From assembly GCF_045037415.1 (NCBI RefSeq), contig NZ_CP173440.1: a stretch of DNA of 64,000 nucleotides, one strand, 5' to 3'. The position numbers were made by a program. Positions 3,001 through 9,000 of this stretch are shown here, one piece after another. How positions within the stretch are numbered: position 1 is the first letter of the stretch; every line of letters begins with the position of its first letter. Source of the stretch: Escherichia coli. GTDB taxonomy: Bacteria; Pseudomonadota; Gammaproteobacteria; Enterobacterales; Enterobacteriaceae.

Positions 3001-6000
3001 CGGGTCTCAACGTCGTGGAAAACTGGAACAGCGCCAATAATTTTATTTTTTATGGCGAACACGGAGAATTTACCAGCAACCGGCCTGCGGATCAGGAACT
3101 GTCGATGCTCTCTTTGCACCTGTTGCAAATCAGCCTGGTCTATATCAATACCCTGTTGATTCAAAATGTGCTGACAGAGCCGGCCTGGCAGCAGAGAATG
3201 ACAGAAGAAGACTGGCGTGGTCTGACCCCATTGATATACCACCATGTTAATCCGTATGGACGTATCGAGCTGAACATGGATCAACGGCTGGCGCTGGCAG
3301 CCTGATGGTGCCCAGAACCGTTCGGTTTCGTACACAGGGTCTTAATACTGTCCGAAAGTAAGTGAAATTACTTTCGGATATGCATTATGATTCGTACATC
3401 CTTTTCGGACGGAAATTTTCATCATGTCACGCGTTTTTGCCTACTGCCGTGTTTCTACACTGGAGCAGAACACGGAAAACCAGCGCAGGGAAATAGAAGC
3501 TGCTGGTTTTACCGTCAAATCCCAGAGACTGATTGAGGAGCACATCAGTGGTTCGGTTGCTGCCAGTGAGCGGCCTGGATTTACCCGTCTGCTCGACAGA
3601 ATGGAAAATGGTGACGTGCTGATTGTCACTAAACTGGATCGTCTTGGACGAAATGCTATGGACGTTAGGAAAACGGTGGAACAACTAGCAGCGTCCGGTA
3701 TTCGCGTACACTGTCTCGCGCTGGGCGGCGTGGACCTCACCAGCGCGGCCGGCAGGATGACCATGCAGGTGATTTCGGCCGTCGCTGAGTTTGAGAAAGA
3801 CCTGCTGATTGAGCGTACACATTCAGGGATTGCAAGAGCCAGGGCTTCGGGAAAACGCTTCGGGCGTCCTTCGTCACTCAATGGGGTACAGCAGCAGGTG
3901 GTGCTGGAACGTCTTAACGCTGGAGTAAGTATTGGTCTATTGCCCGTGAGTTTAGCACTACACGGCAGACCATTCTTCGCGTAAGGAAAGCAGCCGGAAA
4001 CGCGGATGCCGGGAACCTTTCTGGTGAAAAAATATCGTGAAACAGCGTCTGCTATCGAAACCTTAACCATGCATTGCAGGAAGAAAAGATTCCAGAGGAT
4101 TAATTTTGCTTTTAATGACTAACTTGATAAAAGGACATATATATTGATGGAAATTTCAACACAAAAACTGTCTGACGGCATCGTTCTGACGCTTCGCTCT
4201 CCCTCCGACAGTACAAAAAGCCCGGTGATCATTTTGTGCCATGGCTTCTGTGGTATCAGAGAAATTCTGCTACCTGATTTTGCTGAAGCATTTACCCGCG
4301 CCGGATTTTCCACCATCACGTTTGATTATCGTGGTTTCGGGGACAGTGACGGCGAACGCGGCCGCTTGGTTCCTGCTATGCAAATTGACGATATTATCTC
4401 TGTTGTTAACTGGGCAAGAGAACAGCCCTCCCTTGATGCGCAGCGTATTGGCCTGTGGGGAACATCATTTGGGGGATGCCACGTATTTGGTGCGGCGGTC
4501 AGAGACCCGGGAATCAAATGTATTGTCAGCCAGCTGGCTTTTGCAGACGGTGAAGAGATAGTCACCGGGAATATGAATAATGAAGAGAAAGAAGCTTTTC
4601 TTTCAACCCTGGACAAGATGGCTGAAAAGCAGAAGAACACAGGTAAAGAAATGTTCGTGGGTGTCAACCGGGTACTGAGCGATGCAGAATCAAAATCATT
4701 TTTCGAAGAAAACAGAACGCAGTACCCAAAGATGGACATTAAAATACCGTTTCTTACGGTGCGCGAAACTCTTCTGTACAAACCCGCATTGAATGCCTCA
4801 CAGGTGATGTGCCCGACCCTGATCGTTATTGCTGGTCAGGATACGGTTAATCCACCGGAGCAGGGACGGGCCTTATTTGACGCGGTGGGGGCCAAAGAAA
4901 AAAGGCTATATGAGGAAAGCAGTGCCCGCCATTACGACATTTATGCAGGAGAGCACTTTAAGCAGGTTATCAGCATTCAGACAGAATGGTTTAAAACGCA
5001 CCTGTAATTTTAGATAACGACTTACGGTGGGTTCAACAGAGCCCGCCGTTATGATAGACGTCAAATGTCGCATTTTGTAGCTTCGCTTCCGCTGGGCCCC
5101 ATAGGATCTGCCGGATCGTAGAGGCTGGCTCCCAGCGCCAGCTTCACGCCTCTGGACTGTAGTGCATCCGCTATCTCTCGTGCGTCAGGAACTGACCGCG
5201 CCAGCCGGTCAAGCTTGGGAACAGAACAACCAGCGTATCACCGCTGCGCACAGCGGCCAGCGCCTGATCAAGTCCGGGCCGTTGCCGGTTTGAGCCGGTC
5301 AGCCCTTTATCGAGGTAAATCCGGTCCGAAGATCTGGCATGCCTGTATTTGTCATTTTATTCAGCGCACGCACCATGGCCAAAGCCTCTGCAGCCTGACC
5401 ATCGTAATCACGCTACGCCAGCGAACCATCGAACAACTGCTTTACCCTGTACATCGGCGTTTCAGCTATCGACTGACGGTTGTAATCTGTTGTCCATTTC
5501 CACCGTGCATTGCTCCCGCTCAGTCGCTGATTCGCAACAGCACGATTGCGCTCTGCATACTCACCAGGCAAGAATCCCGCTCCCTTTCGGGGAGGAATGA
5601 GCGCGCTGATTTTCTTGCGAGGCAGTTCGTCATGACATCGCTGCGTATCGTAAGCGCCGTCCGCAGCAACTGACCTGATTTTTCGGTGGGTCTGCCGGAT
5701 AAGCCCCGGGGATGCTTCAGCATCCGTGACGTTGTTCAGTGACAGGTCCGCGCAGATGATTTCATGCCTACTCGCGTCAACAGTCAGATGCAGTTTCCGC
5801 CAGATACGACTGCGATCTTTGCCGTGCTTTTTGACTTTCCACTCACCTTCACCGAAGACTTTAAGCCCTGTGGAATCAATCACCAGATGCGAAATTTCAC
5901 CCCGGGTGGGCGTTTTGAAACTGACGTTAACCGACTTTGCCCGCTTGCTGACACTGGTGTAATCCGGACAGCGCAGCGGGACATCCATCAGGGCGAAAAT

Positions 6001-9000
6001 GGAATCAATAAAGCCCTGAGCGGCTCGCAGGGTCAGCCGGAATACGCGTTTAATCACCAGGATGGTTGTGATGGCAAGATCTGAATAGCGCTGAGGTCGT
6101 CCCCGCGATGCAGGCGTTGCTGACTCATACCAGGCCTGAATCGCCTCATCATCAAGCCAGAAAGTGATGGAGCCACGATTAATCAGGGCCTTGTTGTAGT
6201 TGCGCCAGTTGGTGATTTTGAACTTTTGCTTTGCCACGGAACTGCCAGTATAGTCAGGATAATGCGTGATCTGATCCTTCAACTCACCAAAATTTCGATT
6301 TATTCAACAAAGCCGTCTATTACTGGAAATCAATCATGGCGTGCCTGCACTACATCTGAATGTGTCGGGTGGGGATACGCTTCTCCACGTACATGCTGCA
6401 CAAGGTGGACTTGTCCTGACACCAGACAGTTCCGGGGTACTGTTTCAGCGTGCTGGATGCGACAGGTATGCTTACAGAGATCAGAACTCATTACTTGTGA
6501 AGGAACAGTAATATACTGCCCTCCATCAATCCAGAGTCTGGGGTTGTCGCATCAGATCTGACAGAACAAACAATCACGAAAAAGTTACTTTTTTCTCAGG
6601 AGGTGCCTGGACCCCTGCCCTTCATTTTGACGCGAGCAGGATGTCAGCACCTTACGTGCGGTTACTGTTATTCGCGTCCTGGTGGTATAGTGCAGCGGCT
6701 GGCAGAAGTAACCTACTATCCAACGGAATAAGATCACGATGAACGTCATTCAGCCCCGCATGCTCTCTGTATTTGATTTTGACGGTACGTTAACGCGGCA
6801 TGATAGCTTTATCCCTTTTCTGCGGTTTGCCTTTGGCAATCGGGCGTTTTCGCGACGTATCGTCAGCATGGCTCTACCCACGTTACGCTGTATGCGTAAG
6901 CAGATGACGCGTGATGAGCTTAAAGAAACGCTCATTACAACTTTTCTTACTGGTGTTGAGGAAAAGTGGGTGTCTTCTAAAGCAGAGGAATTCTGTCAGC
7001 TCTACTGGCATCGCCTCATGCGCCCGGCAGGTTTGATTGCTGTGGCGAATGAAGTCACTTCCGGCGCGATCGTCACCTTATGTTCTGCCTCGCCGGAAAT
7101 TGTACTCAGACCCTTTGCCGAAAAACTTAGGATCAAACTGATTGGTACACAATTAGAGACAAAAGACGGCATTCTGACCGGCAGAATCAGTGGTCATAAT
7201 TGCAGGTGCTCACAGAAAATTGTCCGGCTTGAAAAAGAATATGGACCTCTGACTGACTATCATCTTCGAGCATGGGGTGATACGCGGGGAGATTATGAAC
7301 TCCTTTCCGCAGCGACTGAGCCTCACTGGCGTCACTTCCATCAAGGTTTCCGTCGTAAGCTAATCATCAGATAAAAATTGCCCTTTATCGTTATGTAATT
7401 TCTTCTTTACATAAAAGTAACATATATTCTACATTTAACCACTGTAACTGGTGAAAAAAAGAGTGCATCCTGGTAAATCGGTAGCTCGGACTATTAGGTA
7501 TGCTTCAACCTGTTACCATTGGAATACCTACTTTCAGCCCGCTTTTCCGAGCGGGTTTTTTTCATCCCTGCCGATGTGTTCCTGGGTCTAAATTACTGGG
7601 TGAAATTGGGTTTCAGCGATCACATCTGCGTATAGCCCTGTTTAGCTCTGCGTACTTTGAAAAGGTGTCGTCATGGCAGCAGGCCTATCGCCCCTTACCG
7701 GGGCGATGAGTCAGATAATGCCTTCCTTTTTTGCCAGTCCAAGCCAGTCTTTGAACTCTTCGAGAAGTTTTTCATACAACTCTTCGTCCTTAATGTGGGC
7801 AAAATTATCGATCGCAAAAAAGTTGCTGTTGTCTACGCGACGGTCGCTAAAGGTGTCCAGCCTCTCCAGAATCCCATAATTTGATCCGCCCAGTCCCACG
7901 AACTTCCAGAAGACAGGATAGTTGGCTGAGCGGCGGATGGCCTCTTTAATTTCTCGTGTTTTGCAGATCCCGCCATCTGTAATGCACACGACAAAAACGG
8001 GTAAGGTGCTTTCCTTGAAATAATCGATAACCTCATTCATGACTGGCGGCTCATTGTTCGTCCCGCCAAGGCCGGGAAGGATTTCCCAGGCCGATCGTTT
8101 ACCCGTGTTCTGAATGGCAGCAATGTATCCGTCAAGATTGTCCAGTGTGACGTCAGGATATTTCTTGTGACGCTCAGCAAAGCCCCATACATCCATCGTG
8201 CCGTCATCGTCGAACTGGACAGACAGGACAGCTATACGGTCAAGAACGGCCTGTACATGTCCTTTTTTAAACTGGCCGGTCATAGAGCCTGAGGCATCGA
8301 GAACAAAAGCGACTCGTGCTTCAACGGTATCCAGTTTGTGTTTTGCCAGTGAAATACTGGCTTTCTTAGCCAGGCTGATAAGCGCAGGCGCTTTACCTTC
8401 GAGTTTCTTTTCAAGGCTGATCCGGGCTGGTTGCGGTACAACTTCTGCTGCAGGTTCCACGTCCACACCATAGCTGACTGCCAGTGGCTCAAGCCCGCCA
8501 TTAAATCCCTGCCCAAGCGCCCTGAGCTTCCAGTTGCCCTGGTATCGGTAAACTTCCCCCATAATTACAGCCTTTTCTGTGCGGCCATTGAGATCGACAA
8601 AAAAGGTGGCCTGACTTTCAGCAGAAAGTTTCAGTTGCGCGAGGCCGCTTATCGTATCACTGCCATCTATCACCATAGTGATTGCAATCTTCTGAATCGT
8701 ATCCGGGATCTGCTCAAGCGCAAAATGAACGACTGCGTGCTGGTGACCGGGGTTGAGTTTCACACTGCCACCGGCAGCACTGAGATTGTTGTAAAAGATA
8801 AAATCGGCATCGCCTGTCACTTTTCCCTCAGCATTCAGCATAAACAGGCAAGTCTCAGGGGGACTGTGAAATCCAGGACTGGGGGGATAATCAAGCCGGA
8901 GAGTCAGTGTAGCTGTGTGAAGCGGAATGTTCTGCCCTGATTGTAATTGCATTTAGGCTCCTTGTTGCCGGGTAAAGGGATCTCTCAGCGGGTAGAAAAA

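Follow-up and report, generated by a model that had tools for sequence, protein, structure and literature searches.

A probable composite scar of IS903-group and Tn3-family debris in the backbone of pLVPK/pK2044-type virulence plasmids

Insertion sequences (IS) of the IS903 group, such as IS903, IS903B and ISKpn74, carry a single DDE transposase ORF between two inverted repeats (IRs) of about 18 bp, one of them GGCTTTGTTGAATAAATC. When such an element makes an adjacent deletion by intramolecular transposition, it remains complete and its terminal IR abuts the new flank. Among Tn3-family transposons, the closest system to the one treated here lies on the Klebsiella pneumoniae plasmid p806883-10-2019a (NZ_CP099749.1); it is 7.8 kb long including an IS903B copy, and is laid out as IR-tnpA-res-tnpR-GNAT-MFS-GNAT-IR. 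Here we describe a locus at positions 5050-6314 of a 64-kb stretch of an Escherichia coli contig (the window), in which remnants of both kinds of element are fused. The same locus is found, 100% identical, in the K. pneumoniae virulence plasmids pLVPK (NC_005249.1) and pK2044 (NC_006625.1), with no differences within 240-6314; the window's plasmid departs from both further along, where a multidrug resistance region begins at ~27.4 kb. Very probably the locus is an inert composite scar, left by at least three separate events in the backbone of a pLVPK/pK2044-type virulence plasmid.

An IS903-group element with one end

The IS part of the locus and its insertion site consist of the following features:

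5333-6314, minus strand: IS903-group (IS5 family) remnant of 982 bp, with 74 bp lost at the transposase-3' end, including the IR of that end
6297-6314, minus strand: intact 18-bp terminal IR at the transposase-5' end, an exact match to GGCTTTGTTGAATAAATC
5333-6282, minus strand: transposase pseudogene with a TTG start at 6280-6282 and a premature TAG, its last 6 codons gone
5413-5415, minus strand: the premature TAG, at codon 290, where relatives have TTG (Leu)
6315-6323: presumed 9-bp target copy, GTCTATTAC
6315-6511, plus strand: 3' remnant of a hypothetical gene (WP_004026617 homologue), the target of the IS, uninterrupted in related plasmids

The 982 bp of the remnant align at 90.6% to IS903-group copies of E. 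coli chromosomes; for the IS903B/ISKpn74-like copies of pK2044 the figure is 84-85%. If the stop is ignored, the transposase reaches 329 bits, against a cut-off of 140, on the IS5 family transposase model NF033579 and also matches PF13737 and PF01609, and its DDE motifs (VIDSTG, AADGAY and SIAET) all lie upstream of the TAG. The remnant thus shares with IS903, IS903B and ISKpn74 an identical 18-bp IR, a single DDE transposase ORF and the same TTG start and motifs. Unlike them, it lacks one IR and the last 6 codons and has a premature stop; where a member of the group would show two IRs of ~18 bp, an intact DDE transposase and a length of ~1.05 kb (~1056-1057 bp for the named elements according to PMC12816380, and 1056-1058 bp across the relatives compared), we found one IR, an interrupted gene and 982 bp.

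Homology to a full-length E. coli relative ends at 5333, 74 bp short of the other terminus. No second IR of the GGCTTTGTTGAATAAATC type that could belong to the IS was found at ≤3 mismatches in the 64-kb window, the sole other match (38333-38350) being the end of an IS6100 in the resistance region. Neither an alternative intact transposase ORF nor, by blastn, another IS903-group copy was found in the window. A previous sequence-only reading had called this a decayed IS903-like element with one intact 18-bp IR, an in-frame TAG and no second IR, to be abandoned if a complete second IR and an intact transposase emerged from an alternative reading; neither did, and the description stands on all these points. 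Judged by its sequence, the transposase ORF is a pseudogene derived from an IS903-group member of the IS5 family. The remnant should be immobile, because it has one end only and a broken transposase.

A chimeric full-length IS query recovered no intact copy of exactly this variant, the full-length matches being mosaics. Four 'complete' copies, in plasmids of the MK3472xx series, matched this query at 94-98%. Two of them were inspected, on pK195_rmpA2 and pK230_rmpA2, and each combines a core 100% identical to the decayed IS with ends taken from other copies of the IS903 group. The surroundings of one are foreign to left and right; the other retains the window's right flank. We rejected both as ancestors, since they are recombinants or assembly chimeras.

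At the intact end, homology to plasmids with an empty site starts exactly at 6315. The uninterrupted target gene, which sits upstream of a HAD-hydrolase/ter cluster, is carried by plasmid pDETEC13 and by an ATCC BAA-196 plasmid, and in pDETEC13 the 3.2 kb to the left of the empty site is missing from pK2044. The first event was the transposition of an IS903-group element into this gene, which produced the clean IS end at 6314/6315. Of the 9-bp target duplication expected from such an insertion, only the right-hand side is left to see, the left flank having been deleted.

A resolvase fragment between the IS and a complete transposon

On its other side the IS remnant is joined to a piece of a resolvase gene, here called tnpR#2 to tell it apart from the tnpR of a neighbouring transposon, Tn#1:

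240-5100, plus strand: Tn#1, a complete Tn3-family transposon with an IR pair, tnpA, tnpR and uilS
240-280: left IR (IRL) of Tn#1, starting TGGG
345-3305: tnpA of Tn#1 (1026 bits on NF033527; PF01526 match)
3424-~4040: tnpR of Tn#1, frameshifted (PF00239 match)
4144-5007: uilS, passenger gene of Tn#1 (UilS, 525 bits on NF047920)
5060-5100, minus strand: right IR (IRR) of Tn#1, with GGGG at its outer end (5097-5100) bordering the resolvase fragment
5101-5332, minus strand: internal fragment (232 bp) of the second Tn3-family resolvase gene, tnpR#2, codons ~32-107 of 193
5219-5228, no strand assigned: 5-bp tandem duplication (GAACA/GAACA) that frameshifts tnpR#2, a 5-bp insertion relative to intact tnpR, visible as a frame switch in the translations
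5332-5333, no strand assigned: junction between tnpR#2 and the truncated IS, placed by a three-way alignment and codon-level reading

The fragment matches PF00239 at positions 34-110 of 145 (E = 3e-17) and is 90.9% identical in nucleotides, over 232 bp, to the intact 193-aa tnpR of NZ_CP099749.1, with which its reading frame agrees except at the 5-bp duplication. It is truly internal, because the N-terminus with the catalytic serine and the C-terminal half are both missing; nothing in it corresponds to 'ARCSTDKQ' in the intact relative. Unlike the TnpR of NZ_CP099749.1, the fragment has no catalytic serine, helix-turn-helix or res site, and no tnpA or IRs of its own lie beside it; it ends at codon 107 against the IR of Tn#1 and is joined on the other side to the IS. 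With the catalytic serine and the DNA-binding domain missing, its product should not be catalytic. Its closest intact relatives are located in a tnpR<-res->tnpA module, and the comparison supports an origin of the fragment from a former Tn3-family element. That a truncated IS end is joined to an internal resolvase fragment had been proposed before, with an extent of 5050-5340; the fusion is real, but the resolvase spans 5101-5332, and 5060-5100 is the right terminal IR of Tn#1. What lies at the opposite edge, 5100/5101, had been overlooked in the sequence-only reading: the fragment stops there at the terminus of a complete Tn3-family transposon.

Tn#1 has the attributes of its family, namely IRs in the ~38-45-bp range starting GGGG (TGGG at IRL), a Tn3-type DDE transposase and a resolvase, here frameshifted. 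Its ends are defined by its own IR pair (agreeing at 34 of 41 positions); among 5,426 E. coli genomes, the only ones with a copy were transconjugants that had received a virulence plasmid, and no independent copy was found. No 5-bp target duplication surrounds it (flanks ACTTT versus ATAGG), and it lies between a truncated cupin/AraC-N gene on the left and the truncated tnpR#2 on the right. A cupin gene of NZ_CP099749.1, considered as a homologue of the one left of Tn#1, proved to be unrelated in sequence.

The two edges of the fragment differ in kind. At 5100/5101 the fragment meets the GGGG terminus of Tn#1, the sole true transposon end with which it is in contact. Similarity to intact tnpR begins there at 5097 or 5101, CCCC at 5097-5100 being common to the Tn#1 IR end and tnpR, which leaves an uncertainty of 4 bp (8 bp counting 5101-5104) in the position of the junction. 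The junction 5332/5333, on the other hand, lies inside both partners, with no element terminus and no microhomology in the nearest relatives; as the best relatives of both partners are only ~91% identical, AAGA at 5329-5332 may still be filler or a short stretch of microhomology.

The deletion next to the IS and its agent

Material has been deleted next to the IS, because related plasmids keep the target gene uninterrupted and neither the window nor pK2044 contains the missing resolvase parts, res or tnpA. Indeed, blastn found neither the second tnpA, nor res, nor the N- and C-terminal parts of tnpR#2, nor the 74-bp IS end in the 64-kb window or in the 224-kb pK2044, with one exception in the latter: at 209250-209288 it carries a 39-bp IR of this transposon type, standing alone. 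This IR gives some purchase to an inversion or translocation in place of a deletion, in which other parts of the plasmid would still carry the lost IS end and whatever else belonged to the second Tn3-family element; with the missing parts absent from both sequences, and no such IR in the window, we consider a rearrangement of this kind highly improbable.

The deletion and the Tn3-family origin of the lost material were both part of the sequence-only reading, and both are borne out; what does not hold is its attribution of the deletion to the IS, as an adjacent deletion by intramolecular transposition that removed part of a Tn3-family element. A deletion did occur beside the IS, and PMC9160755 describes IS903-group elements as active on such plasmids, where they bring about fusions and deletions. 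However, such deletions start at an intact IS terminus, which is missing here: instead of being complete, the IS has lost 74 bp, including an IR and six codons. This makes the IS very unlikely as the agent. A pseudo-end, GGCATGCCTGTATTTGTC at 5336-5353, which matches the IR at 10 of 18 positions by hand comparison, was rejected, because IS homology runs 3 bp past it and the 9-bp flanks differ (CGAAGATCT versus GTCTATTAC).

We favour instead a second event, a deletion with both endpoints in dead DNA that fused the IS, at its nucleotide 75, with tnpR#2 at codon ~32. The loss itself is shown: the end of the IS is gone, and so are the beginning of the target gene, backbone next to it, the N-terminus of tnpR#2, res and tnpA. 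The mechanism was probably illegitimate, end-independent recombination and not transposition by the IS903-group element. The likeness to an adjacent deletion (intramolecular replicative transposition) is found at the junction between the Tn#1 IRR and tnpR#2 (5100/5101), with its truncated gene and no target duplication, and not at the IS903 junction (5332/5333), where the element's own end is lost. A third event, which could have preceded or followed the second, would have placed the terminal IR of Tn#1 in, or brought it against, codon 107 of tnpR#2. Because Tn#1 lacks a 5-bp target duplication and lies between two truncated genes that are unrelated to each other, this presumably happened through intramolecular transposition by Tn#1 (an adjacent deletion) or through a subsequent rearrangement that affected one end of it. 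Point decay would have come afterwards, with TTG changed to TAG in the transposase and the 5-bp duplication in the tnpR#2 fragment. Intermediates that would order these events were sought among 72,556 plasmids with two chimeric queries, one of the tnpR C-terminus plus the IS junction and the other of the Tn#1 IRR plus the tnpR N-terminus, res and tnpA, and no record covers ≥80% of either. Nested debris of mobile elements can hence mimic a simple IS-mediated deletion, and the IS here seems to be the victim of the deletion and not its agent.

The solo IR of pK2044 lies 23.6 kb off, beside iutA, colinear and on the cargo side of tnpR. It raises the thought that the tnpR#2 scrap is all that survives of the transposition module of a large Tn3-family transposon with cargo, which we regard as unlikely. 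If it were so, the cupin/ADH ... vapBC ... TetR/YdgH block that flanks the aerobactin locus, at 185-209 kb of pK2044, would once have been delivered as, or within, one Tn3-family element, with bounding IRs of the type GGGGTTCTACGCC...

Distribution and present state of the scar

The locus occurs without a single difference (100% identity) in over 570 plasmids of the pLVPK/pK2044 type, in which the junctions 5100/5101 and 5332/5333 always occur together. This conservation, and the position of the DDE motifs upstream of the stop, could speak for a remnant kept as functional, either as a 289-aa truncated transposase acting in trans or as a promoter or regulator for neighbouring genes. Yet the backbone is near-clonal, with only 3 differences from pK2044 in the first 16 kb, and since it is equally conserved the identity of the locus is no evidence of selection. 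IS903 transposase moreover acts preferentially in cis, which counts against a remnant acting in trans, and a retained function of either sort is extremely unlikely. For what we take to be an inert scar, the only plausible present role is as a stretch of ~1 kb with partial homology, at 84-85%, to the other IS903-group copies that these plasmids carry, adding another partly homologous IS903-type sequence to molecules whose fusions and deletions run through such copies.

A scar without function, fixed in the lineage of the pLVPK/pK2044 virulence plasmids, would be of little importance in itself. Those parts of the literature on pLVPK-like plasmids that we drew on treat intact IS903B/ISKpn74 copies and do not discuss the remnant. 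In public records the scar is already known, both of its parts being annotated as pseudogenes: RefSeq (PGAP) places them at 5097-5320 and 5299-6282 of the window, labelled 'recombinase family protein, frameshifted, incomplete' and 'IS5 family transposase, internal stop'. The practical use of the locus lies in the pair of junctions 5100/5101 and 5332/5333, which can serve as a lineage marker.

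A decayed IS element joined to a resolvase fragment

Our results show a decayed IS903-group element that a deletion has joined to an orphan piece of a Tn3-family resolvase gene. The feature is an inert scar, fixed in its lineage, and both parts are already annotated as pseudogenes by RefSeq PGAP. The elements concerned are:

240-5100: complete-looking Tn3-family transposon carrying uilS (the uilS transposon)
5101-5332, minus strand: fragment of a second Tn3-family resolvase gene (tnpR#2)
5333-6314, minus strand: truncated IS903-group (IS5 family) element

The terminal inverted repeat (IR) of the IS, the 18-mer GGCTTTGTTGAATAAATC, has a single exact match in the window, at 6297-6314 on the minus strand, and a pattern search for a second IR with up to 3 mismatches gave only 38333-38350, an IS6100 end in the resistance region. 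A sequence-only reading had proposed a decayed IS903-like element with one intact IR, and this is confirmed. The remnant can be aligned with IS903-group elements with no large gaps: it is 90.6% identical to chromosomal copies in E. coli, 84.3% identical to IS903B and 84-85% identical to the three IS903-group copies carried by pK2044 (NC_006625.1), a K. pneumoniae virulence plasmid. Its low-coordinate end is 74 bp shorter than in a full-length relative and lacks the second IR. As the same reading held, the transposase contains an in-frame TAG: it closes the ORF at 5413-6282 (minus strand, 289 codons), where relatives have TTG (Leu). Past this TAG the frame stays homologous up to ...GMP; from there on, for the last six codons before the normal stop, no homology remains. 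The premature TAG comes after the DDE motifs. With the stop read through, the transposase reaches 329 bits on NF033579, where the cut-off is 140, and also matches PF13737 and PF01609.

The IS terminus at the high-coordinate end is a true insertion junction: in two related IS-free ter plasmids (pDETEC13 and the ATCC BAA-196 plasmid) homology to the window begins exactly at 6315 and a hypothetical gene spans this point uninterrupted. What remains of a hypothetical gene (WP_004026617 homologue, intact in related ter plasmids) at 6315-6511 is its orphan 3′ end; the IS insertion and the deletion took its 5′ part here.

The stretch 5101-5332 codes ...DRIYLDKGLTGSNRQRPGLDQALAAVRSGDTLVV / KLDRLARSVPDAREIADALQSRGVKLALGASLYDPADPMG, spread over two frames, and matches positions 34-110 of 145 in PF00239. 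The catalytic-serine segment and the entire C-terminal half are missing, and the fragment is therefore internal. Hence the earlier description of a truncated IS end fused to an internal resolvase fragment is correct, with the junction between 5332 and 5333. Its placement at 5050-5340 holds for 5101-5332 but not for 5060-5100, which is the right IR (IRR) of the uilS transposon. The fragment is not related to the tnpR at 3424 of that transposon. It shows 90.9% DNA identity, over codons ~32-107, to a 193-aa tnpR of K. pneumoniae plasmid NZ_CP099749.1, which sits in a tnpR<-res->tnpA Tn3-family module with near-identical flanking IRs starting GGGGTTCTACGCC, in agreement with the proposed origin from a former Tn3-family element. 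This closest intact relative (L015 5196-13038, within NZ_CP099749.1) also has an IS903B insertion, and its ends show no matching 5-bp duplication (TCAAT vs TAACA). The frameshift in the fragment is a 5-bp tandem duplication, GAACAGAACA (GAACA twice, 5219-5228), most simply explained by slippage; it equals a Tn3-family target duplication in length.

Junction and deletion

Across the junction the window reads CCGGTCCGAAGA followed by TCTGGCATGCC, while the same point reads CCGGTCCGGGGA followed by GACGCC in intact tnpR and, by alignment, ACGTACACTT followed by TCTGGCATGCC in IS relatives. The junction is a natural terminus in neither partner, and no microhomology is visible there, although the best relatives share just ~91% identity with the true parents. 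IS-mediated adjacent deletion (intramolecular transposition) leaves the IS whole, with an IR at the breakpoint. This defining arrangement is not found between 5332 and 5333. A cryptic internal IS end at 5336-5353 (10/18 vs the IR) was rejected, as it lies away from the junction and its 9-bp flanks do not match. The deletion was not made by the IS903-group remnant itself. Thus, of the adjacent deletion proposed from sequence, the deletion stands, the missing pieces being absent, but the IS as its agent does not, since 74 bp with the IR are lost.

Other pieces of the IS, tnpR#2, res or tnpA#2 (the transposase gene of the same lost transposon) were found neither elsewhere in the 64-kb window nor in the 224-kb pK2044, except that pK2044 has one isolated 39-bp IR of this transposon type (209250-209288). 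Nor does pK2044 contain the 3.2 kb found to the left of the empty site in pDETEC13. The material was deleted rather than relocated. Relative to the window start, the solo IR (L011 9250-9288, within pK2044) is about 18.5 kb to the left, and it shares 97% identity with the IR of the transposon type from which tnpR#2 derives. Its GGGG end points towards iutA, it is colinear with the fragment at a distance of 23.6 kb, and a larger Tn3-family element may have left it behind.

The adjacent uilS transposon

Segments 240-280 and 5060-5100 pair up as 41-nt inverted repeats (34/41 matching). IRR ends in GGGG, as Tn3-family termini typically do; the left IR begins TGGG, not GGGG. Between them lie tnpA (1026 bits on NF033527), a tnpR with a frameshift and a passenger gene, uilS, whose product is predicted from its profile match (525 bits on NF047920) to be a UilS-family quorum-quenching N-acyl-homoserine lactonase. 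The whole, 240-5100, looks like a complete Tn3-family transposon. No independent copy was found among the 5,426 E. coli genomes searched, virulence-plasmid transconjugants aside.

Homology to tnpR#2 starts at the outermost end of IRR, with 4 bp (CCCC) common to both. What cuts the fragment on its C-terminal side is therefore a genuine transposon end, that of the uilS transposon, and no other real transposon end touches the fragment. Either intramolecular transposition (adjacent deletion) of this transposon into tnpR#2 or a post-insertion rearrangement could account for its position, because no 5-bp target duplication surrounds it (flanks ACTTT vs ATAGG) and to its left lies a truncated, unrelated cupin gene. 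Among 72,556 plasmids, chimeric queries mimicking either intermediate (at least 80% coverage) detected none that has one junction and lacks the other, so either event could have come first.

Plasmid setting

In reverse orientation, pK2044 is 99.4% identical to window 1-27,414, with only 3 differing positions across the first 16 kb. Differences rise to about 1-2.6% per kb at 16,000-27,414, a jump that may mark a recombination tract on the terW/terY side. Segment 4900-6500 is present at 100% identity in at least 575 plasmid records, pLVPK and pK2044 among them, and also in 21 E. coli transconjugant plasmids. In one plasmid with the stretch, the PGAP gene order is truncated cupin, Tn3-family transposase, frameshifted recombinase, uilS, recombinase pseudogene (frameshifted, incomplete), IS5-family transposase pseudogene (internal stop), HAD hydrolase, VWA and terEDCBA. 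From ~27,400 to 46,000 and beyond, a multidrug-resistance region (TnAs1, IS26, intI1-dfrA5-qacEdelta1-sul1, IS4321, chrA, IS6100 and mph(A)-mrx-mphR) replaces the virulence-plasmid backbone. The same backbone/resistance-region arrangement is carried by pKP96_virNDM5 (NZ_CP138475.1); the source of the window is therefore a hybrid virulence/resistance plasmid, not pK2044 itself.

Both pK195_rmpA2 (MK347228.1, L012 6001-7056) and pK230_rmpA2 (MK347234.1, L013 6001-7056) carry a full-length IS copy with a core that matches the decayed IS at 100% identity. One or both of their ends derive from other IS903-group copies on the plasmid, and these mosaics reflect either a remnant still recombining with its relatives or assembly chimeras.
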